Source: Acidimicrobiia bacterium (GTDB lineage Bacteria > Actinomycetota > Acidimicrobiia > Spongiisociales > ZC4RG35). From it: 64,000 bases of DNA. The translations under genes were made by a program, and so were the position numbers. The notes under the pieces were generated by a model. The model was not told the DNA's origin, did not search any database, and was given only the letters and a program-made list of their open reading frames with translations. The stretch's first letter is position 1. Each line of letters begins with the position of its first letter. Positions 5,312 through 60,754 of this stretch are shown here, piece by piece. The stretch is taken from contig JBBDHV010000039.1 of assembly GCA_040880725.1 (NCBI GenBank), positions 6,481 to 70,480 on the forward strand, given 5' to 3'.

Positions 5312-5477
5312 TAGTGGTGTGTCGCCGAAATAGGTGCGCGGTGTCTCCGAGCACATGGCGTCATCTGGCAAGGACTTCTGACGCAGTCGCACTTGGCCCG
5401 TTCGGCGAGGAGGAGGACGCCGCCAGGGGCGTCATGGGCCGGAGAGACCGCCTCATTATTTTGGCGACGTACCACTA
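5312..5477. mobile_element. MITE copy 1. The element is 162 bp (5314-5475) and is flanked by a TA target-site duplication.
   Basis: Terminal inverted repeats GTGGTGTGTCGCCGAAATA...TATTTTGGCGACGTACCAC. It is 99% identical, in inverse orientation, to the copy at 42320-42485. It has no coding capacity. It is inserted in the TA of the aroC TAG stop, at the TAGTG aroC/aroB overlap. Confidence 0.65.
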
Positions 5478-6629
5478 GAAGGTCTCGAGGCGCGCCCGGT
5501 AGGAGTCGACGTTGCGACGAAGGTCCGCGGCGGTGTCGCCGCCGAACTGTCGTTGGATCTCTTGGGCGACGACGATGGCGACCATCTGCTCGGCGACGAT
5601 TCCCGCTGCGGGCACGGCAACGACATCGGATCGCTCGTAGAAGGCCGTCTTGGCTTCCTTGGTGACGACGTCAACGGTCTGCAGGGACTTGGGCACGGTG
5701 GAGATCGGTTTCATCGCGGCCCTCACCCGCAGCACGTCGCCGTTGGTCATTCCCCCTTCGGTCCCGCCCGCCCGGTTGGTGTGGCGGGTGGGTCCGTCCG
5801 CGGTTGCGTACAGCTCGTCATGGGCCCCCGAGCCCCGCCTCGTGGCGGTGGTGAAGCCGTCTCCGATCTCCACGCCTTTGATCGCCTGGATCGACATGAG
5901 GGCCTCTGCCAGCCGGGCATCGATCTTTCGATCCCAGTGCACATGGCTCCCGAGTCCGACCGGTACCCCGTAGGCGAGGACCTCGACCACCCCTCCGAGG
6001 GTGTCACGATCGGCCCGGGCGGCTTCGATCTCGGCGATCATCGCCGCCTCGGCCGACTCGTCGAAGACACGGACTGCAGATGCGTCGATCTTTGCGAGGT
6101 CGCCGGGACCCGGGACGACCCCTTCCGGCGCGGTGACAGTCCCGATCGACACGACGTGGCTGAGGATCGAGACGTCGACCGCCGCCAGCAGGGTCTTGGC
6201 CAGATAGCCCACGACGGTGCGCGCGGCCGTTTCCCGAGCCGAGGCGCGCTCGAGGATGTTCCGCGCGTCGTGGGTGTCGTACTTCATCATCCCGACGAGA
6301 TCGGCGTGTCCGGGGCGTGGGGCGGTGAGCTTCTTCTTGGCCACGCCGGGATGCGGGCTCATCTCCTCGGACCACTTCGCCTCGTACTCGGTGTTGCGGA
6401 CCACCACTGCCACAGGAGAGCCCAGCGTGCGTCCGTGGCGCACACCGCCGAGGATCTCCAGTTCGTCCTGTTCGATCTTCATCCGCCCGCCCCGGCCGAA
6501 ACCCAAACGACGGCGGGCGAGTTCGGCACCGATCTCGTCGACCAGCACGGGGAGGCCCGCAGGGAGCCCCTCGACGATGGTGACGAGCGCCGGACCGTGG
6601 GATTCACCTGCGGTGAGGAATCTGAACAT
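5475..6629 (-). CDS. aroC: Chorismate synthase
   Basis: 384 aa, [27 protein letters not shown], the canonical chorismate synthase N-terminus. The stop TAG is formed by the TA target-site duplication plus the first G of the MITE. Confidence 0.9.
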
Positions 6630-7439: not shown

Positions 7440-8636
7440 TCAGTCTGCGTCGGTGATGTCTTTGGCCATCGGTCCCAGGCGCCGGCGCCGCAGCAGTCCC
7501 ATCGAGAAACCGGACTCCTCCTCCGGCTCGGCCCCGCCGCCGTCGGTCTCCGAGAACACACTGTCGAGGAACTCGTCGGTGTCGACGTTGGACATCTCGT
7601 CGGCGGGTCCCATCGCTTCGGCCCACCATCCGCCGCGGTTCCCGGTTGGTTCGGCGGAAGACTCTTCGGAGGAGACGGCCGGTGCCTGCTCGGAGTCGCT
7701 GGGTCGGGACCACGGGTCTGTCAGCTCGGTGCTCGGCTGGGGATCTGGCTTGGGATCTGCCTGGGCCGTTGCCCAGGGGCTGGGGGTCGCGTCGGGCTCG
7801 GAGGTTGCGTCGACAGTCGGCTCGGGTTCGGGAGCCTCGACAGGAGCGCTGAACCAGCTCCCCGTCGAGCCGGGAGAGACCGAAGGGGTCGTCGGTGGGG
7901 ACTCCGGTACAGACGCGGGCGGGATTTCACCCACCGGCGCAGCCTGGGCGGACCCTGCGGCCGGTTCGATCAGCGATGACCGGATCAGCGAGGCGACTTC
8001 TCGAGCAGCGCGGAACTCGGTCGTACCGAGCAGGCGGGCGATGTCGGCCACGCTGGAGCCGCCTTCGAGAGATGCGAGCACACGCCAGGTCGGCGCGTTC
8101 ACCGAGACTTCGGACTCCTGCAACTCTCGCACCATTCGCACCGGGAGGTTCATGTCGGAGATGGTCTGTTCGATGTCGGACCAGTCGGCGGCACGCCGGT
8201 CGGCCTCGACGACGATCTGCTCGGCATCGAACGACTGGCCGGTGCGGAATCGTGACTCGGCATCGACGAGGAACTCAAACGTGCCGTTTCCGGGGCGCCT
8301 GATTCGATAGAGGGACTCCACGACGTGTTCACGGACGAGGTCCGTCAGGTCGTCGCTGCTGCGGCCATCCGCGATGGCATCGGGGAGATCGACCGTGTCC
8401 CGGCTTTCGATCCGTGAGCGGTCGACCACGCCGGAGGATGCGATCTGGTCGGCGAGATCCATGTCAGACGCGACGGTCACCAGGGACAGTGCGCCCTCGT
8501 GCAGATAGATGCGCCCGTCGACACCGGCAGCGTCGACACGAAGACACCCGTTCTTTCCCGATCGCGCGAGGAGACGCAGCACCTCCGGGAGTGGAAAAAC
8601 TTCTATGTTGCCGGTCAGTGCCATGCTCATCCTCAC
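7440..8636 (-). CDS. DUF4388-domain protein with a Pro/Ser/Glu-rich low-complexity C-terminus
   Basis: The N-terminus LTGNIEVFPLPEVLRLLARSGKNGCLRV matches the DUF4388 signature. The C-terminal 150 aa are acidic and low-complexity. Confidence 0.6.
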   Translation of the reverse strand: MRMSMALTGNIEVFPLPEVLRLLARSGKNGCLRVDAAGVDGRIYLHEGALSLVTVASDMDLADQIASSGVVDRSRIESRDTVDLPDAIADGRSSDDLTDLVREHVVESLYRIRRPGNGTFEFLVDAESRFRTGQSFDAEQIVVEADRRAADWSDIEQTISDMNLPVRMVRELQESEVSVNAPTWRVLASLEGGSSVADIARLLGTTEFRAAREVASLIRSSLIEPAAGSAQAAPVGEIPPASVPESPPTTPSVSPGSTGSWFSAPVEAPEPEPTVDATSEPDATPSPWATAQADPKPDPQPSTELTDPWSRPSDSEQAPAVSSEESSAEPTGNRGGWWAEAMGPADEMSNVDTDEFLDSVFSETDGGGAEPEEESGFSMGLLRRRRLGPMAKDITDAD

Positions 8637-21189: not shown

Positions 21190-21849
21190 TCAGCCACCGA
21201 GGTCCTGCAGGAAAGGATTGGTTCGTCGCTCCCGGCCGATCGTGGTCTCCGGCCCGTGTCCCGGAAGCACCCGGACGTCGTCGGGGAGGTCGAGGATCCG
21301 GTCGCGCATCGATCGCATCAACGCCTCGTACGAGCCCCCCGGCAGATCGGTGCGGCCGATGGACCCTGCGAAGAGTTGGTCTCCGGAGAACAACACGCCT
21401 TCGCCCTCCACTTCGACGCAGACGTGGCCCGGGGTATGGCCCGGGGTGTGGCGAACCAGCAACCGGAACCCTGCCATGTCGAGCATGTCACCGTCGCCGA
21501 GCGGATGGCGATCGAGGGGTGGCTCGTAGCTTCCGGGTGGCCGCACACCGAAGAGGGTGCGTAACTGCTCGTCGGGAGCAAGCGTGAGGAAGTCATCGTC
21601 GGGATGGACCCATGTCCCCACCCCGTGGGCTCGCTCGACGTCGCCCGCGCCCCCGGCGTGGTCGACGTGGCCGTGCGTGAGGACGAGGCCGGCCGCCGAC
21701 AGTCGGTGGCGGGACAGCAAGTCCGTGACACCGGCGAGATCAGGAGGAGCGTCGATGATCACCGCCGGTTCTCCTGGGCCGCGCGCCAGCACCCAACAGT
21801 TCGTCTGCGCCGCCCACAAAATGTCCCGATCGATCAACACGATTCCCAC
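21190..21849 (-). CDS. MBL-fold metallo-hydrolase (glyoxalase II-like)
   Basis: HxHxDH motif (THGHVDHAGG) plus downstream His/Asp ligands. Confidence 0.8.
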   Translation of the reverse strand: MGIVLIDRDILWAAQTNCWVLARGPGEPAVIIDAPPDLAGVTDLLSRHRLSAAGLVLTHGHVDHAGGAGDVERAHGVGTWVHPDDDFLTLAPDEQLRTLFGVRPPGSYEPPLDRHPLGDGDMLDMAGFRLLVRHTPGHTPGHVCVEVEGEGVLFSGDQLFAGSIGRTDLPGGSYEALMRSMRDRILDLPDDVRVLPGHGPETTIGRERRTNPFLQDLGG

Positions 21850-21939
21850 GATAGGCCCATGAGTCGGAGGGACTATTCCTCAGGTTTGCCTCCGGCGTGC
21901 CGATGCAAGACGCATATTGCCCCTCGTCCCAGACCACAA

Positions 21940-23028
21940 ATGACGGACCACGCACACCACTACAGCACAGTCACCGTTCCCGTCGGCTTCGGCGGAAAAT
22001 CCAGCCCCTACGTTCCCGACCCCGCCCCCACCCTCCTCGTGGAATTGGCCACGGTGGACCGGGCGAAGGAAGAAGCGAAGGTCGCCGCCCTCCTGGGAGA
22101 GGCGGAAGCGACCGCGGCATCCGTGACCGCCGAGGCGGAGGCCGCCGCGGAGGCGATTCGTGCGGAGGCTGCGGAGGCTGCCGGCACCGTCACAGCGAAC
22201 GCTCGGGCGGATGCAGACGCGGTCATCGCCGCCGCCGAGGACGAGGCCAAGGCGGTGATCGGTGCGGCCGACACCTCCGTCGCCGGCACCCTGGCCAAGA
22301 TCGAGACGAGCGGGTCGGAGCTCGCAGAACGCGCCGCCGGCCTCGAGGCCCTTCGCTCAGAGCTGGATTCACGGGACGCACTCCTCGCCGAGCGGCTGGC
22401 AGCAGTGGACGCCGAAGTCGCGGAGGCGGCAACCATCCTCTCCGCCGCCCACCGCGAGGCAGATTCCGTCCTGGCCGAGGCGCGTGCCTCCGCCGAAGAG
22501 ATTCTCGACTCCGCGCGTCAACAGGCGGAGGACGACGCCCGCGCCCTGGTCGCTGAGGCCCGCACCGCGGCGGAGCACGACCCTGCGGTCCAGGAACGGA
22601 TCGCCGAGATTGGGAGCGTTCACCGCATCGAGGTTCAGGTCCTCCATGACCGAGAAGTGGAACTGCTCGAGCGCATTGCAGATCTGGAAGCCCGCGTCGC
22701 CGCGCCCCCAGTGGTTGCGGGGACCGGCGACGAATCGGCCGGTCTCGAAACCGGGACACCCACCGAAACCCCGCAGGACGCCCCCACTGGGGACGAGGAG
22801 CGGACAGCCGACGATGACGAGTCGATGTCCATCGACCTCGACGACGAGCGGGCGGAAGTGACCGTGCGCCAGGATCGTCTGAACGGCCGCCACACCTCCG
22901 ACGGGCGCACAGCGGAGCGCTCCCCGAGTGCCGGCACGATCGTCACTCACGCACCGCTCATCGAACAACTCAGCACATCGGCGTTTCGCGCGATGCCCGA
23001 TGAACGGAGAGGCCGGAGGCGACGCTGA
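21940..23028 (+). CDS. Ala/Glu/Arg-rich coiled-coil protein (hypothetical)
   Basis: Long heptad-like AEAEAAAEAIRAEAAEAA tracts. The 5' part of the ORF track (21604-21939) overlaps the MBL gene on the other strand, so the start is assigned to the first in-frame ATG that leaves a divergent intergenic gap. Its stop overlaps the next gene's start (TGATG). Confidence 0.5.
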   Translation: MTDHAHHYSTVTVPVGFGGKSSPYVPDPAPTLLVELATVDRAKEEAKVAALLGEAEATAASVTAEAEAAAEAIRAEAAEAAGTVTANARADADAVIAAAEDEAKAVIGAADTSVAGTLAKIETSGSELAERAAGLEALRSELDSRDALLAERLAAVDAEVAEAATILSAAHREADSVLAEARASAEEILDSARQQAEDDARALVAEARTAAEHDPAVQERIAEIGSVHRIEVQVLHDREVELLERIADLEARVAAPPVVAGTGDESAGLETGTPTETPQDAPTGDEERTADDDESMSIDLDDERAEVTVRQDRLNGRHTSDGRTAERSPSAGTIVTHAPLIEQLSTSAFRAMPDERRGRRRR

Positions 23029-23912
23029 TGGATGTCGCCGCGGCCAAGGAGCAGGCTGAGGCACTCGTTCGGGTGGCAGAAACCCTCGTCGCGAAGGCTC
23101 GCGATGAGTCAGAGTCGATCGTTTCGGACGGCCAGAAGCGGGTCGCCGGAATTCTCGCCGATGCAGACGCCCTCCGCAGCGCAGCCGAAAGGGACGCAGC
23201 GTCGACGCGAGCCGAAGCCGAACAGCGTCTGGCGGATGCGCGCCGGGAGGCGGACGCCCTCCTGGCCGAAGCCCGAGATGCCCGAGAAGAAGCGGTGCAG
23301 GCGGCCCGAACCGGGTTGGACGCATCGCGAGCTGCAGGAGGCACCGTTCAGGGAGCTGCACCCGCGGCGTCGACCGATTTCGCAGTCCAAGAGGCGAGCG
23401 AGGTGGCCGATCGGATCCTACGCGTCGCCCGTTCCGAGGCGGAGGCACGCAGCAGGGCAGTGACCGAGGAGGCCCGTCGCCGCGCCGAGATCATCGAGCG
23501 CGACGCCCGGAGCAGGGCCGAAGTCGCGGCGAAGGAGTACCGGGACCTCGTTCGCTCCATGCAGCAGGCGGAACTGTCCGCAAAGTCCCGGATCCGGGAA
23601 CTCGACACCGAGATCGCCCGACTGGAGCGGCTGTTGAACCGTGTCACCGAGGAGGCAGCGCGACGGGGTCTCGACACTGATCCGTCGGCCGACCCGGTCG
23701 AACCTCGCGAGGTGAGTGCGTCCGGAATCGTCTTCCCGACGTCGGCGTCGAGCCGGCCGGCCCCATCTGCCGCGGACGACGACGCCGACCGCACTCCCGA
23801 GTCCGTCGACACCCCCCGCCCGATCGAACGCATCGCCACCGCCGAACAGCCGTCGCGCACTCACGATGTCGATGCGCTTCTGGCCCGCAGGGGAATTCGG
23901 CGCCGAGCCTGA
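23028..23912 (+). CDS. Ala/Glu/Arg-rich coiled-coil protein, tandem paralogue of the preceding gene
   Basis: Same compositional and coiled-coil character (ADALLAEARDAREEAVQAAR). Translationally coupled to the previous gene. Confidence 0.5.
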   Translation: MDVAAAKEQAEALVRVAETLVAKARDESESIVSDGQKRVAGILADADALRSAAERDAASTRAEAEQRLADARREADALLAEARDAREEAVQAARTGLDASRAAGGTVQGAAPAASTDFAVQEASEVADRILRVARSEAEARSRAVTEEARRRAEIIERDARSRAEVAAKEYRDLVRSMQQAELSAKSRIRELDTEIARLERLLNRVTEEAARRGLDTDPSADPVEPREVSASGIVFPTSASSRPAPSAADDDADRTPESVDTPRPIERIATAEQPSRTHDVDALLARRGIRRRA

Positions 23913-34249: not shown

Positions 34250-34500
34250 TTTGATTGTGCGGGGGGGCGACCCCCCTGCACCCCCCGGACGGCGCGGCTG
34301 CCCTCGTCGGCTCACCGGGGGTCGCGCTCGATGACTCATGACGGTGGGTGGTCGCGGAGGTTTGGGTCGCTGCTTGATTGTGCGGGGGGGCGACCCCCCT
34401 GCACCCCCCGGACGGCTTGATTGTGCGGGGGGCGACCCCCCGGCACCCCCCGGACGGCGCGGCTGCCCTCGTCGGCTCACCGGGGGTCGCGCCCTGTGAC
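34250..34500. repeat. Tandem array of three copies of a palindromic G7-CGA-C6 hairpin repeat unit of about 105 bp. Copies one and three are full-length; the middle copy is truncated to about 42 bp.
   Basis: The core TTGATTGTGCGGGGGGGCGACCCCCCTGCACCCCCCGGACGG recurs at about 34250, 34376 and 34418. Copies 1 and 3 extend to ...CGCGGCTGCCCTCGTCGGCTCACCGGGGGTCGCG...GACTCAT(GA)C. Confidence 0.65.
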
Positions 34501-34583
34501 TCATCGTCTGGTCTGACGCGGGTGAGGACCACGGTGGGCGAAGCTGCGGGTTTGGCTGGCCACGCGACTCAGGAACTCTCCCG

Positions 34584-36621: not shown

Positions 36622-37185
36622 TCACCTTCCGAGAAGCTTCAGTGCGGTGCGGATTTGTTCGGTCACGGGCGCCTCGGAATCGATTCCTGCCATCGCTTCT
36701 CTGATCTCCGCGACGGAGTATCCCAACTGCTCGAGCGCTTGCCGAACTTGGCTTCCGGTGGACTCGGTCATGTCGGCTTCCATGTCCACCAACCGCGGCT
36801 TGAGGTCGAGCACGATCCGCTGCGCGGTGCGCTTGCCGATCCCCGGGACCTGGGTGAGGGCGTCGACGTCCTCGGACGCGATCGCGCGGCGGAGGGCTTC
36901 GGGCGAGAACACGCCGAGGATCCCGAGTGCGACCCGCGGTCCGACGCCTTGGGCGCCGAGGAGCACCCGAAAGAGGTCCCGCTCCGGGCCGTTGGCGAAT
37001 CCGTAGAGCACGAGAGCGTCATCACGGACGTGGAGATGTGTCGCCACCGTTGCTTCGTCACCGACCTGGCCGACACCCGTGGCGGTCTTCGGCGTCACAT
37101 GCAACTCGTATCCGACCCCGCCCACGTCGAGGATCAGTCGGTCGGCATCGATCGCTGCCACGTGGCCTCGGAGTCGGCCGATCAT
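36622..37185 (-). CDS. ruvA: Holliday junction DNA-binding protein RuvA
   Basis: MIGRLRG...[10 protein letters not shown] fold plus HhH motifs. The start at the internal ATG overlaps the ruvC stop. Confidence 0.9.
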
Positions 37186-37670
37186 CAACGGGTCCCCGCG
37201 GGAAGGCGGATGCTCTGCAGGTGACACATTGCGATCGCGAGGGCATCAGCCACGTCTGCGGGGCCTTCCACCCCCGGGAGGGAAAGTCGTCGCGCCACCA
37301 TCGCGGCCACCGCGGTCTTGGCGGCGGCGCCGTCGCCGGTCACTGCGAGTTTCACCTGGTTGGGGCTGTATTCGGCCACGTCCAGGCCCGCCCTGGCGGC
37401 GGTGAGCAGCACGACACCGGATGCCCGTCCGACGGCGATGGCGGTCTGTCGGTTGCGGTTGGTGAAGACACGTTCGATGGCCGCAACGTCTGGTTCGTGT
37501 TCTGCGATGACCGCCGCGAGGTCCCGTTCGAGTTCGAGGAGCCGGGCCGCCATCGGTTGGGCGGGGTCGGTGCGGATGACTCCGGCGGCGACGGCTTCGA
37601 GGCCGCGTCCGCGTCGCACCAGCCCGTAGCCGGTGCGGGTCAATCCGGGGTCGATTCCGAGTACGAACAT
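37185..37670 (-). CDS. ruvC: Crossover junction endodeoxyribonuclease RuvC
   Basis: MFVLGIDPGLTRTGYG, RNase H-like fold with the catalytic Asp. Confidence 0.9.
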   Translation of the reverse strand: MFVLGIDPGLTRTGYGLVRRGRGLEAVAAGVIRTDPAQPMAARLLELERDLAAVIAEHEPDVAAIERVFTNRNRQTAIAVGRASGVVLLTAARAGLDVAEYSPNQVKLAVTGDGAAAKTAVAAMVARRLSLPGVEGPADVADALAIAMCHLQSIRLPAGTR

Positions 37671-37720
37671 GTGTACGACAGGCTAGATGCGATGTGCGAC
37701 AGTTCCGTGTCACCATCGCG

Positions 37721-38152
37721 TCAGCCGGCGATCATCGCCGCCAGGGCTGCCAGCCACAGCACGTTCTCGAGGTGGAACATCCGGGAGAAGCGCCGCCCGT
37801 ACGCAGCCGCGACGTCGGTTTCCCCGCGGCCGACGGCGGCGGTCAGTCCGTCCCAGGCCGGTCGGGCTGCCGTTGCGCCGAGCACGATCGCTCCGATCGC
37901 TGCGAGGATGCCGACTCCGAGAAGGGTGCTGGACGACCACCCGGCGTTCCACAGCAGTCCGATCCCGCTCAGGACCGTGAGGACGGCTGCTCCGATACCG
38001 AGCCGAGCGCTCGTCGTAAGGCGTTGCACCATCGCCGTCGCCGCTTCTCCCCCGACGCCGAGGCACACGCGAATGTCCCGCGGGATTGGCAGCTTGTGCC
38101 CGAACCACGCGGCGGCACTGGCGACGTGAACCACGAGCAGCACGGTCTTCAT
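37721..38152 (-). CDS. Hypothetical integral membrane protein (143 aa)
   Basis: Four predicted hydrophobic helices. Position conserved between ruvC and yebC. Confidence 0.5.
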   Translation of the reverse strand: MKTVLLVVHVASAAAWFGHKLPIPRDIRVCLGVGGEAATAMVQRLTTSARLGIGAAVLTVLSGIGLLWNAGWSSSTLLGVGILAAIGAIVLGATAARPAWDGLTAAVGRGETDVAAAYGRRFSRMFHLENVLWLAALAAMIAG

Positions 38153-42316: not shown

Positions 42317-42319
42317 GTC

Positions 42320-42485
42320 TAGTGGTCCGTCGCCGAAATAATGAGGCGGTCTCTCCGGCCCATGACGCCCCTGGCGGCGTCCTCCTCCTCGCCGAACGGG
42401 CCAAGTGCGACTGCGTCAGAAGTCCTTGCCAGATGACGCCATGTGCTCGGAGACACCGCGCACCTATTTCGGCGACACACCACTA
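42320..42485. mobile_element. MITE copy 2. The element is 162 bp (42322-42483), flanked by a TA target-site duplication, in inverse orientation to copy 1.
   Basis: Identical to copy 1 except for two substitutions in one TIR. It is inserted in the TA of the pgsA1 TAG stop, two nucleotides upstream of the acyltransferase ATG. Confidence 0.65.
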
Positions 42486-43055
42486 GGTCTTGATCTGTTC
42501 GTAGGTCGTCCAGAACCGCTGTCCGGCGGTGAACCATGCCGCGGCGACGAAGACCCACAGCATCGGCTCGATGTAGCCGGTGAGCATTCCCAGTGTGACG
42601 AGGATCACCCGCTCGGCGCGACCCATGAGGCCCCCGCGGCCGTCGATTCCGACCGCTTCGGCCTTCGCACGCATGTAGGGGATGAGGAGCGACCCTCCGA
42701 GCGCCAGCAACGACAGCAGCAGGATCCGCACTTCGCCGCGCTGGCTGACGGCGAGGCCGGTGAGGACCGCGATCTCGCCGAGCCGGTCGACGGTGGCGTC
42801 GAGGAAGCCGCCCCGTTCGGTCACCTTCCCGGAGGCCCGAGCGACAGAGCCGTCGAGTCCGTCGAGGGCCGAGCCGGCCAGGGCGACGAGTGCGCCGATG
42901 ATGATCTCGCCGACCCCGATCAGCACCGCGCCGAAGATTGCGATGAAGAGCCCGAACAGGGTCATGAAGGTCGGGGACACCCCGAGGCGGGCGAGGAACC
43001 GCCCGATCGGCTCGAGAATTCCCTGCACGCGGGGACGCACCCGCATGTCGATCAT
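42483..43055 (-). CDS. pgsA1: CDP-diacylglycerol--inositol 3-phosphatidyltransferase (PI synthase, CDP-alcohol phosphatidyltransferase family)
   Basis: D-G-x2-A-R...G-x3-D-x3-D motif (DGLDGSVARASGKVTERGGFLDATVD). Confidence 0.85.
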   Translation of the reverse strand: MIDMRVRPRVQGILEPIGRFLARLGVSPTFMTLFGLFIAIFGAVLIGVGEIIIGALVALAGSALDGLDGSVARASGKVTERGGFLDATVDRLGEIAVLTGLAVSQRGEVRILLLSLLALGGSLLIPYMRAKAEAVGIDGRGGLMGRAERVILVTLGMLTGYIEPMLWVFVAAAWFTAGQRFWTTYEQIKT

Positions 43056-45240: not shown

Positions 45241-46530
45241 ATGTCCGAGGTGACGATCCGTCACGGTGAAAAGGAGACGACCGTCCCGGTCGTCGAAGCA
45301 ACCGAGGGAAACAGCGGATTCGACATCTCGGCAGTCCGGGCCGACCTGGGTCTGGTGACCCTGGACCGCGGTTTCGGCAACACTGCCGAAAGCCCGAGCA
45401 CCGTGTCCTACATCGACGGCGAGGAAGGTGTGCTGCTGTACCGGGGTTACCCGATCGAGCAGTTGGCGGAGCACTCGAGCTTTCTCGAGGTGTCCTATCT
45501 CCTCAACTACGGCGAGTTGCCGACCGCCCATCAGCTCTCCGAGTTCGAGGAGTCGATCCGGCGCCACACCCTGCTGCGCGAGGACATGAAGTACCTGCTG
45601 GAGGCGTTCCCGCACGCAGCCCACCCGATGCAGATTCTCGCCTCGGGCGTTTCGGCGATGGCCACGTACTACCCCGACGCCCTCGATCCGAAGAACGAGG
45701 AGTCGGTCGACATTTCGGCTCGTCGCCTGATCGCCAAGGTTCCGACGATGATCGCGTTGGCGCACAAGTACAGCGTTCATCAGCCGGCGATGTATCCCCG
45801 CAACGACTTGGACTACACGGCCAACTTCCTGCACATGATGTTCGCCGTCCCCCCGGAGGACTACGAGATCGACCCCGTCGTGGTGAAGGCACTCGAAGTC
45901 TTGCTCATCCTCCACGCCGATCACGGCCAGAACTGTTCGTCCTCGGCGGTGCGACTGGTCGGCTCCGGGCAGGCCAACATCTTCTCGTCGATCTCGGCAG
46001 GGATCCACGCCCTGAGCGGCCCGCTGCACGGTGGCGCCAATCAGGCAGTGCTCGAGATGCTGCAGAAGATCACCGAGTCCGGCGACAGCGTGGACAGCTT
46101 CGTCAAGCGGGCCAAGGACAAGAACGACCCGTTCCGTCTCATGGGCTTCGGACACCGGGTGTACAAGAACTTCGACCCGAGGGCGAAGATCATCAAGCAG
46201 GCGGCCGCGGACGTCCTCGACCAACTGCACGTCACCGACCCGATGCTCGAAGTGGCGACGCAACTCGAGCAGGTCGCGTTGGAGGACGACTACTTCATCG
46301 AGCGCAAGCTCTACCCGAACGTGGACTTCTACTCCGGCATCATCTACCGGGCGATGGGTTTCCCGAACGAGATGTTCCCGGTCCTTTTCGCCTTGGGCCG
46401 CCTCCCCGGCTGGATCGCCCAGTGGCGGGAGATGAGCTCAGACCCGAAGGGCCGCATCTACCGCCCCCGCCAGGTCTACGTCGGTGCCCCCACCCGGGAT
46501 TACACCCCCATCACCGACCGAACTGCTTGA
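45241..46530 (+). CDS. gltA: Citrate synthase
   Basis: 429 aa type II citrate synthase with the conserved active-site region (HADHGQNCSS...GFGHRVY). Confidence 0.95.
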   Translation: MSEVTIRHGEKETTVPVVEATEGNSGFDISAVRADLGLVTLDRGFGNTAESPSTVSYIDGEEGVLLYRGYPIEQLAEHSSFLEVSYLLNYGELPTAHQLSEFEESIRRHTLLREDMKYLLEAFPHAAHPMQILASGVSAMATYYPDALDPKNEESVDISARRLIAKVPTMIALAHKYSVHQPAMYPRNDLDYTANFLHMMFAVPPEDYEIDPVVVKALEVLLILHADHGQNCSSSAVRLVGSGQANIFSSISAGIHALSGPLHGGANQAVLEMLQKITESGDSVDSFVKRAKDKNDPFRLMGFGHRVYKNFDPRAKIIKQAAADVLDQLHVTDPMLEVATQLEQVALEDDYFIERKLYPNVDFYSGIIYRAMGFPNEMFPVLFALGRLPGWIAQWREMSSDPKGRIYRPRQVYVGAPTRDYTPITDRTA

Positions 46531-46920
46531 TTGTGCGGGGGGGCGACCCCCCTGCACCCCCCGAACGGCGCGGCTGCCGGTGTCGGGGGTCACCTGCGGA
46601 CCCATTCCATGGCTCATGACGAGACATGATCGCGGAGGCCTGGAACGCGCGAGACGTCGCTGGCTATGAAGCGTCCTGGACCTCCGCCAGCAGATCTCGT
46701 CATGAGCCCTCGGGTGGACCCGCAGACAGACCAGGAATCGACGGCCGCGCCAAGCGGGGGGTGCCGGGGGGTTCGACCCCCTGCACAATTAAAGAGCGTC
46801 CCAGACCGCGTCGTGAAGGTTCGGTCATGAGTCATTGGGTGAATTCCCAGCCGAACGAGACCGTGCCAGCCGCGCCAAGCGGGGGGTGCCGGGGGGTTCG
46901 ACCCCCTGCACAATTAAGCA
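46526..46920. repeat. Cluster of three copies (one forward, two inverted) of the same G7-CGA-C6 hairpin repeat unit of about 105 bp, in the convergent gltA/ferritin intergenic region
   Basis: Forward copy CTGCTTGATTGTGCGGGGGGGCGACCCCCCTGCACCCCCCGAACGGCGCGGCTGCC...GGCTCATGACGAG at about 46526. Reverse-oriented copies end ...CGGGGGGTGCCGGGGGGTTCGACCCCCTGCACAATTAA at about 46800 and about 46917. Each is preceded by a (G)CTCATGAC-type motif. Confidence 0.65.
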
Positions 46921-55236: not shown

Positions 55237-55821
55237 ATGAGTGAGTACACATCCTCGACCGCCCTGGTGGTGGTCGACGTCCAGAACGACTTCGCCGACC
55301 CGAAGGGGAACCTGTTCGTCTCCGGCGGCGACGAGGTCGTGGCAGTCTGCAACGCCGAGATCGTCCGCGCCTTGGCCGCCGGCTCGTTCGTCGTCTACAC
55401 CCAGGATTGGCACCCGGAGTCCACACCGCATTTCCAAAAGGACGGTGGGGTGTGGCCCGTGCACTGTGTCGCAGACACCTGGGGTGCGGAGTTCCATCCC
55501 CGCCTGGTCCTCGCAGGACCGACCGTGCGGAAGGGTTCCAACGGTGAGGACGGCTACTCCGGGTTCACGATGCGCGATCCCGAGTCCGGGGAGACCACCC
55601 CGACCGCCCTCGAGTCGCTTCTGCGGGAACGTGACATCACCGACGTCGTGGTGGTCGGATTGGCTTTCGATGTCTGTGTGAAGGCCACCGCCCTCGACGC
55701 CAACCGTCTCGGTTTCCCGACGACCGTGATCCAGGCTGCCAGCGCCGCGGTGGAACTCGAAGCAGGCGACACCGAACGCTCCGAGGTCGAACTCACCGCG
55801 TCGGGTGTCACGCTGAACTGA
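55237..55821 (+). CDS. pncA: Nicotinamidase / pyrazinamidase (isochorismatase family)
   Basis: VVVDVQNDF, catalytic Cys (AFDVCV) and the metal-binding His/Asp pattern. Divergent from pncB (NAD salvage pair). Confidence 0.85.
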   Translation: MSEYTSSTALVVVDVQNDFADPKGNLFVSGGDEVVAVCNAEIVRALAAGSFVVYTQDWHPESTPHFQKDGGVWPVHCVADTWGAEFHPRLVLAGPTVRKGSNGEDGYSGFTMRDPESGETTPTALESLLRERDITDVVVVGLAFDVCVKATALDANRLGFPTTVIQAASAAVELEAGDTERSEVELTASGVTLN

Positions 55822-55962
55822 TCAGCTAGCCGCTCCTCTGAGGCGCGCGGGAGAGGCAGCGTTGTGAGGGGTCGATTGCCTCTCTGGACCATGACCACTG
55901 GTGCACGCCAGCCTAAATTTGCCTGATCATGGCGGAGAGAACGGCAGCGAGCTTCCGCCGAC

Positions 55963-55986
55963 GGAATACGCCACCTGTCGTATTCC
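55963..55986 (+). promoter_or_regulatory. Inverted repeat GGAATACG-N8-CGTATTCC (candidate operator) about 40 bp upstream of the TAT-protein gene
   Basis: Perfect 8-bp inverted repeat in a locally AT-richer stretch of the cassette's 5' region. Confidence 0.25.
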
Positions 55987-56026
55987 CGTGCGTTCGAGCC
56001 CCCGATAGATTCATGAAGACCTGAGA

Positions 56027-56956
56027 ATGGGAGTGGGCGTGTCTGGGAATCATGCTTCGAACCGTGGGCCTGTCGCTGGAATCTCCCGCCGGGACCTCCT
56101 GAAGCGGAGCGCCGCTTTGGGCGGGACCGCGCTCTGGGTCACACCTGCAGTGCAGGCAATCGGGATGAGCCGAGCCCTGGCGCAAGAAACGTCGCCCCTG
56201 CCCCCGACGGGCGCAGGCGTCGTCAGCGGTCAGGTCGTTGACGCGACCACGGGTCTTTCCATTGCCGGCGCCACAGTCGCCGTCATTGGTACCGGAATCT
56301 CTACTGTCAGTGACTCGGGCGGCAATTACACGCTCACCAACGTGCCGGCAGGAACGCAAACGCTCGAAGGTTCAGCGTCGGGCTATTTCACCGCTACGAC
56401 GTCGGTTGCAGTCATCGACGGTGCCACCGTCAACAAGGTCATCGCGCTTTCCCCGATAACGACTTCCGACATCACTGCGGTACTCAGCTGGGGTGCCGTC
56501 CCCGCTGATCTCGATCTCCACGCTTCCGGTCCCGACGGGTCGGGAGGCCGCTTCCACGCCGCCTATTTCGACAAGACGCCAGTTGGCCATGTGGAACTCG
56601 ATGTGGATGACACGTCTTCGTTCGGCCCTGAGACGATGTCATTCAAGATCCATCCCGTCGATGGCACCTTTGTGGCCGGTACCTATCGCGTCTGGGTTCA
56701 TGACTACACCAATCGCACGAGCGGTTCGATTCCCCAGTGGGACGACTCCGCCGCAAGCGTGTTGCTCAATGGACTGTCCGGTCAGATTGCCGAGTACCTC
56801 GTCGATGCAGCGGTGGCGGCGAAGGGTGGGGTCATCGTGGATGAGGACAAGTTGTGGCGGGTCGTGCAATTCGACCTCGATACAGCCGGGACCGTGTCGA
56901 ACATCGTGGTGTTCCAGAACTTTGTCAACGGAACGGAATCGACCACCGACGTATAG
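56027..56956 (+). CDS. TAT-secreted protein with a carboxypeptidase-regulatory-like (CarbopepD_reg) beta-sandwich domain; the C-terminal domain is unknown
   Basis: Twin-arginine leader SRRDLLKRSAALGGTALWVTPAVQAIGMSRALAQE. The GQVVDATTGLSIAGATVAV...SDSGGNYTLTNVPAGTQTLEGSASGYF pattern is typical of CarbopepD_reg. Confidence 0.6.
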   Translation: MGVGVSGNHASNRGPVAGISRRDLLKRSAALGGTALWVTPAVQAIGMSRALAQETSPLPPTGAGVVSGQVVDATTGLSIAGATVAVIGTGISTVSDSGGNYTLTNVPAGTQTLEGSASGYFTATTSVAVIDGATVNKVIALSPITTSDITAVLSWGAVPADLDLHASGPDGSGGRFHAAYFDKTPVGHVELDVDDTSSFGPETMSFKIHPVDGTFVAGTYRVWVHDYTNRTSGSIPQWDDSAASVLLNGLSGQIAEYLVDAAVAAKGGVIVDEDKLWRVVQFDLDTAGTVSNIVVFQNFVNGTESTTDV

Positions 56957-57108
56957 GTTGGGCGCCTCATCTTCGACGTCGCAGGTCGGCCTCCTGCCCT
57001 GGTGATCCCATCCCTTTTCGCTCCCCCGGCCCCCCCTGGGGCCGGAATGGGGAAGTAGCTGGGGACCCGCAGGGGACCCCGCCCACCGAAGCAGATCTGG
57101 GCGCGAAC

Positions 57109-57245
57109 CACCGCCCCTCGACGCCAACCGACTCGGTTTCCCGACCACCGTGATCCAGGCGGCCAGTGCCGCGGTGGAACTCGAAGCAGGCGACACCGAA
57201 CGCTCCGAGGTCGAACTCATCGCGTCGGGCGTCAATCTGCGCTGA
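57109..57245 (+). pseudogene. Displaced 3'-terminal fragment of pncA. It forms a 137-bp imperfect direct repeat of 55685-55821.
   Basis: About 92% nucleotide identity to the pncA 3' end. It stays in frame, encoding LDANRLGFPTTVIQAASAAVELEAGDTERSEVELIASGVNLR*. Five of eight codon differences are synonymous. It has no 5' part or start codon. Confidence 0.6.
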
Positions 57246-58788
57246 CCGTCTCCGGCGGGTCCGGTCGACGTCGGAGGTAGGCGTGTCCGCCGGCTGCGAG
57301 CCCGCCCAGGGCCGGCAGCCAGAACGAGATCAACCGGAACGTCAACACGGGTCCGGCTGCAGCGGCTGCCGGGATTCCGAAGAGGGTGAGAGCGCCCAGG
57401 AGACCGACTTCGGTCACACCGAGGCCTCCCGGTGCACCGGGGAGACCCCCCACGATCTGGGAGATCCCGAAGGAGCCCACCACCTGGGCGGGAGCCATCG
57501 AGATGCCGAATGCGACCAGGGTCAACCCGAGCGTGGCGGCTTCGAGCAGCGTGCGTGCCGTGAGCAGCCCCCACGATTTGCGGTCGAGTTCCCGGTCGAC
57601 GAGGGCTTCGCTCATCCGGGTTCGGAAACGTCGCGGCAGCATCCACACGAGTCGTCGCAGATGCCCGGCGAAGCCGACGAGTCCCGCCGCCACGGCCACA
57701 CACCCCACTCCGACCAGGGCCATCGTCTTCGAGGCGTTCCCCGGCTGGTGGAGTACCGACGCCCAGATCAGGCCGATCCCGGTGATCCCGAGCAGTCCTC
57801 CATACGACAGCACCGTCGCCCGCACCGCGGCTCCCACGGTGTTCTCGGTGCGGTCTTTGACGGACCAGGCCATGGCCAGTGGGGTGACCAACCCCCCGGC
57901 CGGGATGAGCCGTGCGATGCCTGTCCCGACCAGAGCAGCCCGGAATGCCGTCCCTGAGGAGATGTGGACTCCGGACGCACGTGCTCCTTGGCGGTAGAGC
58001 TCCCCGAAGGCGTATTCGGCTCCGAACTCGGTGGCTGCGGCGGCGAGGAGCAGAGCCACGGTGGCCGTCGACACTCGGAGATCGGTGGCTCGGGAACCGG
58101 CCAGCCAGACGTAGGTGGGGAATCCGACGAGGATCAGCGCCGGAACCCACCACATGCGGCTCCCCTCCACGGCGAGCGGACGCGAGGGGAGGCTGACCGT
58201 GCGGGAATCGTCGTCGAACAGCACCCGCCTGAGCAGGCCGTGACGGACGAGCCCTGCATTTCCCTGGGCTCTGCGGACGGCCATCATCGACCCGAGACCC
58301 GCCGCGAACAGGACCACCGGGACCGTGGGGTGTTGCCACACGGCGAAAAGGGGTAGCAGCGCCCAGCCGAAGAATCCGGCGATGCCGCCTCCGACAGCCC
58401 AGCCCGCCACCGACCACAGCCCAGGCCACACCGCCAGAGACGGCATGAACCCGACGACCGCGCCGGCCGACGTCGCCAGTCCACGTCCACCTCGGCGGCG
58501 TCCCAGAACCGGCCAGTCGTTTCCCGCAACTGCCGCCAATCCGACGGCGGCCACCGCGGCGTTCGAGAAGCCGACGTTGCGGGCGGCCAGCACCGGAACG
58601 AGGCCTTTCAGCCCGTCGAGCACTGCGAGCATGATCCCGGCGCCGAGGCCGATCGACCGAGTGGCGTTGCCGGCTCCGGCGTTTCCGCTCCCCACGCCGG
58701 TGAGGTCGGTTCGCCAGAGGATGCGCACGGCGTTGGAGGCCGGAATCGACCCGATCAGCCATGCACAGAAAACTGCCAGAACCACCAT
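57232..58788 (-). CDS. plsY: Fusion protein: glycerol-3-phosphate acyltransferase PlsY (N-terminal about 200 aa) plus a UPF0104 / lysyl-phosphatidylglycerol-synthase-like flippase TM domain (C-terminal about 300 aa)
   Basis: The N-terminus AWLIGSIPASNAV...GSGNAGAGNATR...DGLKG matches the PlsY signature. The C-terminal polytopic region ends in GGLGVTEVGLLGALTLFGIP...FRLISFWLPALGG, typical of the UPF0104/MprF flippase-type domain. Confidence 0.7.
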   Translation of the reverse strand: MVVLAVFCAWLIGSIPASNAVRILWRTDLTGVGSGNAGAGNATRSIGLGAGIMLAVLDGLKGLVPVLAARNVGFSNAAVAAVGLAAVAGNDWPVLGRRRGGRGLATSAGAVVGFMPSLAVWPGLWSVAGWAVGGGIAGFFGWALLPLFAVWQHPTVPVVLFAAGLGSMMAVRRAQGNAGLVRHGLLRRVLFDDDSRTVSLPSRPLAVEGSRMWWVPALILVGFPTYVWLAGSRATDLRVSTATVALLLAAAATEFGAEYAFGELYRQGARASGVHISSGTAFRAALVGTGIARLIPAGGLVTPLAMAWSVKDRTENTVGAAVRATVLSYGGLLGITGIGLIWASVLHQPGNASKTMALVGVGCVAVAAGLVGFAGHLRRLVWMLPRRFRTRMSEALVDRELDRKSWGLLTARTLLEAATLGLTLVAFGISMAPAQVVGSFGISQIVGGLPGAPGGLGVTEVGLLGALTLFGIPAAAAAGPVLTFRLISFWLPALGGLAAGGHAYLRRRPDPPETVSAD

Positions 58789-59595: not shown

Positions 59596-60012
59596 CTACT
59601 TGTTCGTTCTCGCTCCCAGCACCACCTGGGTCTGTGTGACCTTGGCGACCAGGTGGTGATCATTGGTGATCTCGGTCTCGACGACGACGGTGCCCGATCC
59701 GACGTGGAGCGGTCGGGCGACCGCTTCGACGGTGCCGGATTTCACGGCCCGGAGAAAGTTGGTCTTCGACTCGATGGTGGAGGTGCCGTCTGCCCCGGCC
59801 GGGAGGTTCAGGAACGCACAGGCTGCCCCGGCCGAGTCGGCCAGCGCCATGAGCGCACCGCCGTGCAGCACGTCACCGCTCGTGCACAACTCGGGTGCCC
59901 AGTCGAGGGCGAGGACCACTTCGTCGGCGGTGAGGTTCACCGCCCGGATGCCGAGCGTGGCGCACAGTGGCATCGCCTGGCGGATGAAGGCGGTCGGGTC
60001 GTCGGGGGTCAC
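59596..60012 (-). CDS. PaaI-family thioesterase (hotdog fold)
   Basis: Hotdog signature with HGGALMALAD and the catalytic Asp. Confidence 0.75.
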   Translation of the reverse strand: MTPDDPTAFIRQAMPLCATLGIRAVNLTADEVVLALDWAPELCTSGDVLHGGALMALADSAGAACAFLNLPAGADGTSTIESKTNFLRAVKSGTVEAVARPLHVGSGTVVVETEITNDHHLVAKVTQTQVVLGARTNK

Positions 60013-60045
60013 GGCAGCACTCCTGTCAGCCGAGTATCGCCGAGT

Positions 60046-60453
60046 TCATTTCGAAGTGGCGACGAATTCGACCCGGGCGTTGCACCCGGGCACGGCAGCC
60101 AGGGCGGAGTCCCCGGTCACGAACGGGACCTCCAACACCTCAGCGAGGGCGAGGTAGAGACCGTCGTACATCGTCATGTTCCGGCGGAGCTGGAAGGCCC
60201 GATCGACCAGTCGAGTGTGCGGGTATCGGACAATCGGTAGCTCCATCGCGTCGGCCAGGGCTGCTGTCGCCTGCGGCTCGTCGATCTCTCCTCCGAGCTC
60301 GTACCGACGAACGACCTGGCCGATTTCTGCATCGATCAAGTGAGGTGCACACGCCACGGTTCCGGACAGCAGCGAAGCAGCCAGGAAGTCACCGGCCGGG
60401 CTTCCAGGCCCCAGCACCAGGTCGACGACGACCGACGCGTCGACGACGATCAA
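60046..60453 (-). CDS. vapC: PIN-domain ribonuclease toxin VapC
   Basis: N-terminal MIVVDASVVVDL with conserved acidic residues (D5, E42-like, D100-like). 4-nt overlap with the upstream antitoxin gene. Confidence 0.8.
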   Translation of the reverse strand: MIVVDASVVVDLVLGPGSPAGDFLAASLLSGTVACAPHLIDAEIGQVVRRYELGGEIDEPQATAALADAMELPIVRYPHTRLVDRAFQLRRNMTMYDGLYLALAEVLEVPFVTGDSALAAVPGCNARVEFVATSK

Positions 60454-60671
60454 CGGCTGTCGCGTTCAGAGCGCAGCGCTTCCGCGGGCGTTTCGGACAA
60501 TGCGGGGCGGTTCTTCGTCACGATCCGCTCGAGGATCTCATCAACCGGTGGCGTTGCCACGATCCGTTCCATCTCGTGAGCCAGGAAGTCGGAGAGGGAC
60601 ATCCCTGCCCGAGTGGCGCGTGCCTTGAGTTCCTGGTGGATGGCATCGGGAACATTCCGAACCTGGATCAT
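60450..60671 (-). CDS. vapB: VapB-type antitoxin (ribbon-helix-helix)
   Basis: MIQVRNVPDAIHQELKARATRAGMSLSDFL is a typical RHH antitoxin N-terminus. The start is assigned to the internal ATG. Confidence 0.65.
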   Translation of the reverse strand: MIQVRNVPDAIHQELKARATRAGMSLSDFLAHEMERIVATPPVDEILERIVTKNRPALSETPAEALRSERDSR

Positions 60672-60754
60672 CTTGGTCATGTGGTGCACAGTAATTGCAT
60701 GTGCAGCACATGCACTGCCCGAGCCTCCGCGGGGGACACCCCGAACGAGGTTGA

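Follow-up and report, generated by a model that had tools for sequence, protein, structure and literature searches.

Integrating elements that rebuild the end of a target gene

Islands that target tRNA genes and elements of the pSAM2/SLP1 type enter the chromosome by Campbell-type integration, which regenerates the 3' end of the target gene and leaves direct repeats, tens of bp to about 100 bp long. Such a repeat is also known from a protein-coding gene, and the textbook case is the cryptic prophage e14 of E. coli K-12 at icd/icdC (PMC6379469, PMC13626634), whose excision has been documented experimentally (PMC13626634). In streptococci, decayed ICEs and IMEs known as CIMEs (cis-mobilizable elements) have kept attL and attR without the genes for integration and transfer; they are recognized by the att sites that they have in common with a related, functional ICE or IME of the species, which can mobilize them (PMC5704250).

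Here we describe an insert at the 3' end of pncA in an Acidimicrobiia bacterium (assembly GCA_040880725.1, contig JBBDHV010000039.1, positions 6,481-70,480 of the forward strand). The whole stretch of 64,000 nt that was analysed is called the window, and coordinates refer to it. The locus consists of the following features.

55237-55821, + strand: pncA, nicotinamidase of the isochorismatase family (Pfam PF00857, E = 1.6e-26)
55685-55821, + strand: upstream repeat copy (attL-like), the functional pncA 3' end with about the 45 last pncA codons
57109-57245, + strand: downstream repeat copy (attR-like), the displaced native pncA 3' end, its right end syntenic with the empty sites of relatives
57232-58788, - strand: convergent fusion gene for PlsY (G3P acyltransferase) and LPG_synthase_TM (Pfam PF02660, PF03706)

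The locus resembles icd with e14 (and phage 21) in that the insertion lies within ~50 codons of the end of a housekeeping protein gene, the copy on the element side completes that gene, and the displaced native tail, which is the icdC pseudogene in E. coli, is kept at the far end as an in-frame fragment. The repeats are also alike in their statistics: 131-137 nt, 92% identity and five synonymous plus three nonsynonymous codon differences at pncA, against 165 nt, 92.7% and nine plus two codons as measured here for the icd/icdC repeat of E. coli MG1655. As expected for an insertion of the e14/icd type, there is an empty site in relatives, and the repeats are made of the target 3' end, one copy completing the reading frame and the other contiguous with native DNA; a recombinase of its own, repeated use of the target and presence in other genomes were, however, not found (80 relatives and viral scans). 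The two also differ in size and content, since e14 is 15.2 kb long with intE, xisE and many phage genes, whereas the pncA insert is 1.29 kb between the repeats and holds a single cargo gene and no recombinase.

With CIMEs the insert shares repeats from the target 3' end, which are only att-like here, the lack of integrase and transfer genes, and a content of cargo only; it differs in that no partner element or common att site was found, in its smaller size and in belonging to another phylum (Acidimicrobiia). Islands at tRNA genes and the pSAM2/SLP1 type are similar in the integration that regenerates the target 3' end and in the direct repeats, but pncA is a protein gene, the window contains no tRNA gene, and an int, xis or rep module is lacking.

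The duplicated pncA end and its empty site

The preliminary description of this DNA, made from the sequence alone, had reported that the pncA end recurs as a 137-bp repeat of about 92% identity, and alignment bears this out. Without gaps, 55691-55821 matches 57115-57245 over 131 nt with 10 mismatches (55707, 55722, 55737, 55743, 55796, 55806, 55811, 55812, 55816, 55817; 92% identity), and BLAST extends the repeat to 55685-55821 and 57108-57245 (137/138 nt, E = 1e-51) with one 1-nt indel (CCACCGCCC versus CCACCGCCCC). Inside it is an identical run of 52 nt (55744-55795) with mismatches on both sides, the length of which is not significant (p = 0.055). Compared codon by codon, the copies show five synonymous differences among eight, exactly as had been claimed, and TGA is the stop in both. 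The repeat ends at the pncA stop codon, and the upstream copy restores an intact PncA of 194 aa, the length of the orthologues at empty sites. The downstream copy was said to keep its reading frame, and this holds from 57117 (LDANRLGFPTTVIQAASAAVELEAGDTERSEVELIASGVNLR, then the stop) but not further left, where the indel at the left edge breaks the frame. It is now non-coding except for the 14 nt (57232-57245) in common with the plsY-fusion gene, of which it contains the stop and the four final codons. In the 64-kb window there is no third copy of the tail, and the pncA duplication is the only one of a gene end.

All six related organisms that were found (11 contigs, 7 samples) have the empty site that had been looked for; they lack the cargo gene in an otherwise colinear neighbourhood, and their PlsY fusions are 76-83% identical to that of the window. 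In 11 of 11 contigs pncA converges on the plsY-fusion gene with a 14-nt overlap, and the downstream copy makes the same overlap here. The sequence before 55685 and everything to the right of the downstream copy are syntenic with the empty sites, and beyond 55821 the sequence is related to that of no relative. Native DNA continues directly from the downstream copy, which is therefore the original end of pncA, now displaced, in agreement with what had been read from its overlap with the plsY-fusion gene; the upstream copy is possibly the one supplied by an element. The insertion of 1,424 bp is real in the window and in a 99.9%-identical strain, because the empty site is found in 11 contigs of six relatives. 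The integrated arrangement is identical in two independent MAG contigs of 94 kb and 25 kb (0 differences over 55685-57245), and both cassette-side junctions are also present in Logan contigs of further runs.

The 90% protein clusters of PncA, the PlsY fusion and the cargo protein each contain this species only, and the PlsY-fusion relative that comes next is 81% identical. A scan of genome contigs with PncA gave matches that were all at most 72% identical, none of which had the plsY-fusion or cargo gene adjoining pncA. That the insert might be the end of a larger recombination tract was considered and rejected, as the plsY-fusion gene evolves faster in all relatives.

The cargo unit and its homologues

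Between the repeat copies, the insert is organized as follows.

55822-56038, + strand: leader with an 8-bp inverted repeat, a palindrome and a -10-like motif
56039-56956, + strand: cargo gene of 305 aa, with a GTG start after GGGAG (an alternative ATG at 56027 would give 309 aa)
56957-57108, + strand: trailer with a GC hairpin

The arms of the inverted repeat lie at 55851-55858 and 55877-55884, the operator-like palindrome at 55963-55986 has 11-nt arms (GGAATACGCCA/TGTCGTATTCC), and the -10-like GATAGATTC is at 56004-56012. The palindrome and a GATAG motif are conserved 5' of cargo homologues in unrelated contexts. The leader had been described as AT-richer, which is right in direction but mild in extent (GC 0.61 versus 0.665 for the window). 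Besides an RRDLLK twin-arginine (Tat-type) signal, the cargo protein has a CarboxypepD_reg domain, which is transthyretin-like, and a beta-sandwich that is TerD-like; the signal and the CarboxypepD_reg domain, like the inverted repeat and the hairpin, had been recognized before and are all present. In the trailer, the GC hairpin CCGGCCCC-CCCT-GGGGCCGG occupies 57026-57045, folding overall is no better than that of shuffled sequence (z = 0.24), and neither a T-tract terminator nor a protein-domain remnant in six-frame translations was found. Rfam gave no match in the insert, Pfam none in six-frame translations of the leader, and terminator and promoter scans of the insert none either. The word GGGGACCC, which occurs twice in the trailer, was tried as an arm-type site and rejected, its frequency in the window being not above chance. 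The insert is thus a self-contained unit of operator-like palindrome, secreted-protein gene and GC hairpin.

Such a unit invites comparison with an integron cassette, which the preliminary description had offered as one possibility. It has a single promoter-proximal gene, a short flank resembling a recombination site and a length of ~1.3 kb. However, there is no IntI, attI, Pc platform or array, the unit is flanked not by attC sites but by copies of its target gene among housekeeping neighbours, the insert boundaries have no GTTRRRY core, attC-like pairing is absent from the trailer (the same z = 0.24), and the insert has its own conserved promoter/operator, so that the integron-like option is unsupported. 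Features of transposons or insertion sequences were likewise not seen: there are no terminal inverted repeats at 55822/57108 and no transposase, and the duplication is 137 bp and not short.

Homologues of the cargo at 63-72% identity are found in at least four unrelated neighbourhoods, and above 72% the protein is confined to this species. The GC3 of the cargo gene is 0.71, against 0.80-0.87 for nearby genes, and on the grounds of this composition and the unrelated neighbourhoods of its homologues the gene looks foreign. For one homologue, a tyrosine integrase gene is 0.7 kb away, and HTH_17, primase-like and DDE transposase genes occur in the region as well; the contig of this homologue is from a metagenome that also yields empty-site relatives. 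Neither att-like repeats nor a pncA fragment were found beside the cargo homologues (L084 and L129-L133; five other contexts). The contigs L084 and L085 represent one locus. Metagenome contigs scanned with the cargo protein gave partial matches of at most 46%, which are uninformative.

Search for a recombinase and a parent element

Neither the insert and its untranslated flanks nor the ~55 genes of the window yielded an integrase, excisionase or transposase, whole or in fragments, and a tblastn search of the window with a tyrosine integrase gave no match. The absence of an integrase noted earlier therefore stands for the insert and for the rest of the 64-kb window, and the recombinase that had been supposed to act on the repeat was found in neither. 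Further cases, a search for which the preliminary description had suggested, did not appear: a duplication of the pncA tail within 10 kb was found in 0 of 80 species-level relatives, viral contigs searched with the cargo protein, PncA and a degenerate tail pattern were all negative, and a second copy of the cassette was missing from the window, the 80 pncA relatives, the five contexts of cargo homologues and the viral contigs. The collections searched contained neither a parent element with a pncA-like segment nor a partner element sharing the att sites. Two Logan contigs (L082 and L083) that span only from repeat core to repeat core were considered as a circular form and rejected; their ends lie exactly k-1 bases inside the 52-nt core common to both copies, and such ends are expected for any repeat.

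Divergence of the two copies

The repeat copies are 92% identical to each other and 66-79% identical to the tail of any relative. Being nearest to each other, they imply that a foreign tail would have come from the same narrow lineage, and a duplication in situ would also explain their closeness. When the 10 differences were polarized by the empty-site relatives, most sites could not be assigned because the tails of the relatives are only 66-79% identical to either copy. Among those that could, 55743, the nonsynonymous 55796 and perhaps 55811 are derived in the downstream copy, and the synonymous 55812 alone in the upstream one.

The preliminary description held that both copies evolved as coding sequence. 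The dN/dS of the repeat is 0.30, and neutral evolution of both copies is rejected at p ~0.02-0.03, but drift of the downstream copy alone after duplication in situ is rejected only at p ~0.03-0.2, depending on the test, so that the claim is statistically weak. All 10 differences are synonymous or fall at residues that vary in orthologues (p ~0.03-0.06 under drift of a dead copy), whereas the synonymous-fraction test does not reject the in situ model (p = 0.21). Between the two sequenced strains there is no difference over 1,561 nt, and the in situ model needs ~70 times their divergence.

Origin of the insert

The best explanation, to which we give about an even chance, is that the insert is a decayed, integrase-less, "CIME-like" remnant of an element that entered pncA at its 3' end and brought a substitute for that end. 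A circular element would have entered by a single (Campbell-type) recombination within the last ~45 codons of pncA and would have brought its own pncA-like 3' segment, so that one tail copy (55685-55821) now completes the body of pncA. The native tail (57109-57245), although displaced, would have stayed joined to the plsY-fusion gene, which needs its 14 nt. By duplication of the tail, DNA can thus be inserted between two overlapping convergent genes with neither of them truncated. A later deletion would have left one cargo unit with the operator/promoter, the gene for the Tat-signal transthyretin-like and TerD-like protein, and the hairpin. The empty sites, the location at the pncA end, the e14-like statistics, differences of kinds that a functional PncA tolerates, the foreign-looking cargo, the homologue near a tyrosine integrase and the known decay of elements to CIMEs weigh for this history. 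Against it weigh the negative searches for a recombinase, a parent element and further cases, as well as the closeness of the two copies to each other; in addition, a 1.3-kb remnant without any gene debris is unusually clean for a decayed island. That an element supplied a replacement 3' end had been proposed before, and the insertion, the polarity of the copies and the e14/icd parallel support it in part, but that there was once a larger element, joined to pncA by a site-specific integrase, we only infer.

Rather less probable is that foreign DNA was captured in one step with a long target duplication, the copies being identical at first and having diverged by 8% in place. A staggered break or a replication-template switch over the last 137 bp of pncA would be filled in on both sides, and a 1.29-kb foreign fragment then joined, for example by Ku/LigD end joining. 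This would account for the failure to find a recombinase or a parent element and for copies that are nearest to each other, and it fits with polarizable changes that are mostly derived in the downstream copy, where the 1-nt indel also sits, and with the synonymous-fraction test. On the other hand, all 8-10 differences are tolerated in a functional PncA, identical 137-bp repeats would be prone to delete the insert, and ~120 nt of useless DNA would have to be kept for long, as the ~70-fold divergence implies. Target duplications as long as 137 bp are, moreover, rare in bacteria.

Acquisition from a sister strain by RecA-dependent recombination we consider unlikely. Either a circular DNA that held a pncA 3' fragment by chance would have undergone Campbell-type integration, or homology-facilitated illegitimate recombination would have used pncA as the anchor with an illegitimate right join at 57108/57109. 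The second tail, only 8% diverged and of the same narrow lineage, would then be explained without an integrase, and the identical core of 52 nt is long enough for RecA exchange, even if it is not a significantly long run. The donor, however, must already have paired the cargo with a pncA tail, whereas six of six relatives have the overlap of pncA and the plsY-fusion gene, and this requirement moves the same question one step back.

It is very improbable that the insert is a live minimal cassette, that is, a 1,424-bp circle of one gene with its operator and a 137-bp att site that mimics pncA, moved in trans by a recombinase from another part of the genome or from a different element. The tidy and complete unit with intact att-like ends and no debris would suit it, as would the close cargo homologue adjoining a tyrosine integrase, but it occurs once and in one species only, neither a circular junction nor a second target or another context was seen, the cargo homologues elsewhere have no flanking repeats, and an attC-like fold is absent. 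Finally, it is scarcely credible that an assembler threaded into the chromosome a small circular replicon with a 52-nt stretch in common with pncA. The core-to-core contigs L082/L083, which cannot by themselves separate a circle from an insertion, would allow it, but the two independent MAG contigs agree throughout and the copy-specific variants flanking the core are 54 nt apart, presumably within reach of ordinary reads and k-mers.

The event looks like one of a known kind on an unusually small scale, in which an integrating mobile element would have left its footprint and lost the machinery of its own. The insert does not point to a new mechanism.

Meaning for gene gain in Acidimicrobiia

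The locus offers a clean and dated case of a single secreted-protein gene gained by one streamlined, uncultured lineage of actinobacteria, and this gene was placed between overlapping convergent genes with neither damaged. With it, gene-end replacement in the style of e14/icd is extended to pncA and to the Acidimicrobiia. If the repeats are working attachment sites, the insert would be among the smallest att-bounded units known, and if the live cassette were true, it would mean transfer of single genes, independent of integrons, into the ends of housekeeping genes without damage to them. As it stands, the insert mainly shows how island decay ends, and it is useful for marking a recent gene gain.

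A duplicated pncA end enclosing a single gene

The 3' end of pncA occurs twice in the window, and the two copies enclose one gene for a secreted protein. The arrangement is as follows.

55685–55821: upstream (attL-like) copy, the true 3' end of the 194-aa isochorismatase-family PncA
Leader: 217 nt, 5' part of the insert
56039–56956 (+): cargo gene, product of 305 aa, with a twin-arginine motif (RRDLLK) and CarboxypepD_reg domains
Trailer: 152 nt, including an 8-bp GC hairpin
57109–57245: downstream (attR-like) copy, preceded by no pncA sequence
57232–58788 (-): convergent gene fusing PlsY (glycerol-3-phosphate acyltransferase) to an LPG_synthase_TM / UPF0104 membrane domain, 518 aa

As the preliminary description had it, a pncA-end direct repeat flanks the insert: 131 nt align ungapped between 55691–55821 and 57115–57245 with 10 mismatches (92% identity), and the similarity extends to 55685 and 57108 if one 1-nt indel in a C-run is allowed (BLAST E = 1e-51). 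By codon the copies show five synonymous and three nonsynonymous differences, and TGA terminates both. The last 14 nt of the downstream copy are also the final codons and stop of the fusion gene. Neither the repeat nor the insert has a further copy in the 64-kb window, which shows no other gene-end duplication. A stretch of 52 nt (55744–55795), with mismatches on either side, is identical between the copies; since it is not significantly long (p = 0.055), it gives no ground for reading it as a crossover core. The PlsY fusion itself is conserved across about 50 proteins, with identities as low as 45%, on Acidimicrobiia-like metagenome contigs.

By prediction, the insert is a transcription unit complete in itself, with one gene, whose product is secreted. 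A palindrome, ATACG-N8-CGTAT, followed by a GATAGNTTC motif lies about 60–90 nt 5' of the cargo start, at 55963–56012 in the window and, in three loci carrying cargo homologues, at 2541–2561 (L084), ~1545–1588 (L129) and ~122–169 (L131). Because both are conserved across unrelated contexts, the leader appears to belong to the cargo gene as its promoter/operator, and the palindrome is probably an operator overlapping the promoter. The AlphaFold model of the protein (pLDDT 86) has two beta-sandwich domains after the signal, and the protein is possibly calcium-binding, again by prediction. The cargo gene is compositionally odd, with a GC3 of 0.71 vs 0.80–0.87 in six neighbour genes; GC is 0.62 in the insert vs 0.665 in the window. 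Proteins identical to it are found in this species only, and the next nearest (63–72% identical) are spread over at least four unrelated settings, where the homologue follows the gene of a PglD-like acyltransferase or of FtsX, precedes a DoxX gene or, on contig L084, has a tyrosine integrase 0.7 kb away. HTH_17, a primase-like gene, a DDE transposase and additional integrase genes lie in the same stretch of L084, a contig from a JGI metagenome in which relatives with an empty site also occur.

Empty sites in related genomes

The window comes from an uncultured Acidimicrobiia bacterium. A second MAG of the lineage (GCA_040904385.1), 99.6–99.9% identical across the window parts it covers and 99.9% around the insert, has the same arrangement, with zero differences over 55685–57245. 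The preliminary description had proposed looking for relatives in which pncA directly adjoins the plsY-fusion gene, and a search with the PlsY-fusion protein recovered six more distant ones (76–83% amino-acid identity; 11 contigs, 7 samples), colinear with the window through thrS, APH, GNAT, patatin, DUF6328, pncB, pncA, plsY-fusion, RRM and 4HBT. In 11 of 11 contigs pncA (184–194 aa; frameshifted in two) converges on the plsY-fusion gene with an overlap of exactly 14 nt, which favours insertion, and all 11 are devoid of the cargo gene. The relatives' single pncA tail aligns with both window copies, and their flank past the pncA stop aligns solely with the sequence following the downstream copy, which bears out the earlier view that this copy is the displaced native end. 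Together, the overlap without cargo and the flank alignment show that the window lineage gained an insertion of 1,424 bp (1,287 unique plus 137 duplicated).

The two frameshifted genes (L087 9544–10128 and L088 8794–9378, JGI sample 3300076001) are called only as an 83-aa C-terminal part at the empty site, and a third contig of this sample (L086) has pncA intact; they may be a population-level pseudogene or a sequencing error.

Recurrence was not seen. In 80 species-level PncA relatives no further pncA tail turned up within 10 kb and no cargo gene lay near pncA. No repeats or pncA fragments flank the cargo homologues elsewhere, and viral contigs contained no cargo gene and no attachment segment resembling pncA; one metagenome scan gave distant relatives only. 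The preliminary description had named two observations that together would speak against it: the lack of any empty site, which the 11 contigs above contradict, and the lack of any other instance of such duplication, which holds within these data.

Other elements of the window

A PIN + RHH (FitA-like) toxin-antitoxin pair at 60003–60747, with the 4HBT thioesterase gene on one side and a gene of 302 aa on the other, is missing in three relatives (L086, L089, L091), which have just 58–100 bp at that site. By this comparison it is another short insertion specific to the lineage, 3 kb away from the one at pncA, and no flanking duplication was seen there. An element of 169 nt occurs twice at gene ends (5311–5479 and 42318–42486), in opposite orientation and with 99% identity; with its terminal inverted repeats of ~39 nt (CTAGTGGTCCGTCGCCGAAATA...), it looks like a miniature inverted-repeat element (MITE). 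A GC-rich intergenic repeat family (GGGGGGCGACCCCCCTGCACCCCCCGGACGG...) forms tandem or inverted clusters at 34262–34504 and 46505–46919, and one copy lies between the DUF6328 gene and pncB in the relative's locus L092 (about 7825–7916), where the window lacks one. Three sizeable ORFs of 400, 474 and 294 aa at 36927–38129 (+) and 21604–23912 (+) gave no Pfam hit at E <= 1e-5; that of 400 aa resembles the cargo gene in its low GC3 (0.71) and may be another acquired gene.

Origin of the insert

The anatomy is that of Campbell-type integration into the 3'-terminal part of a protein gene, with the entering DNA bringing along its own form of the terminal sequence. Given the 14-nt overlap of pncA with the plsY-fusion gene, an insertion between the two truncates one unless the overlap is duplicated, which supplies a functional rationale for the arrangement. 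The Escherichia coli prophage e14, flanked by icd and an icdC fragment (PMC6379469, PMC13626634), is a close match: its repeat in MG1655, as we measured it, is 165 nt at 92.7%, with 9 synonymous and 2 nonsynonymous codons, vs 131–137 nt, 92% and 5/3 at pncA, and the pncA insert works like its gene-end replacement. Integrated elements are documented to decay into att-flanked units without integration genes (cis-mobilizable elements, CIMEs; PMC5704250), which the present state of the insert resembles. On this anatomy, the e14/icd match and this decay route, the favoured explanation, to which we give about an even chance, is that an integrative element joined the pncA 3' end and then decayed, keeping both ends and one useful cargo gene.

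As the preliminary description had noted of integrases, no integrase, excisionase, transposase or fragment of one was found in the insert or window, and Pfam scans and gene calls gave no recombinase among about 55 window genes. The leader and trailer matched no Pfam family in six-frame translation, the insert region matched no Rfam family, and tblastn with the L084 integrase had no match in the window, an ordinary housekeeping region (pyrBC, nusB, efp, aroBC, alaS, aspS, hisS, relA, secDF, tgt, queA, ruvB, pdxST, gltA, thrS) without a tRNA gene.

One-step capture of DNA with a long target duplication, by which the copies would have started out identical and the downstream one alone would have drifted, is unlikely. 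The synonymous fraction alone fails to reject it (p = 0.21), but the three amino-acid replacements are all confined to sites that vary in functional orthologues and spare the 21 invariant ones, so that 'all differences tolerated' has p about 0.03–0.06 under such drift. With dN/dS between the copies at 0.30 and 'both neutral' rejected (p about 0.02–0.03), the balance favours, not decisively, two tails that evolved as working pncA ends; the earlier statement that both evolved as coding sequence has weak statistical support. Whether the supplied tail is truly foreign is the weak point of the integrative reading: the copies are 92% identical to each other vs 66–79% to any relative's tail, a distance at which most diagnostic sites are not polarisable. 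RecA-dependent acquisition from a sister strain is still less likely, and a still-active ~1.4-kb cassette mobilised in trans is highly improbable. The integron-like cassette once suggested finds no support: the insert shows none of the defining features of integron cassettes, nor those of transposons, nor those features of e14-type elements and CIMEs that call for a recombinase or partner element. Terminal inverted repeats are absent from it, and its ends are not enriched in any motif. An assembly artefact is very unlikely, because two independent assemblies give the same arrangement and copy-specific variants lie just 54 nt apart.

The pncA insert indicates no new mechanism. It is best classed as a minimal insertion of one gene in Acidimicrobiia, integrase-less and att-like-bounded, a known kind of event, and thanks to the empty sites it is a well-documented gene gain.
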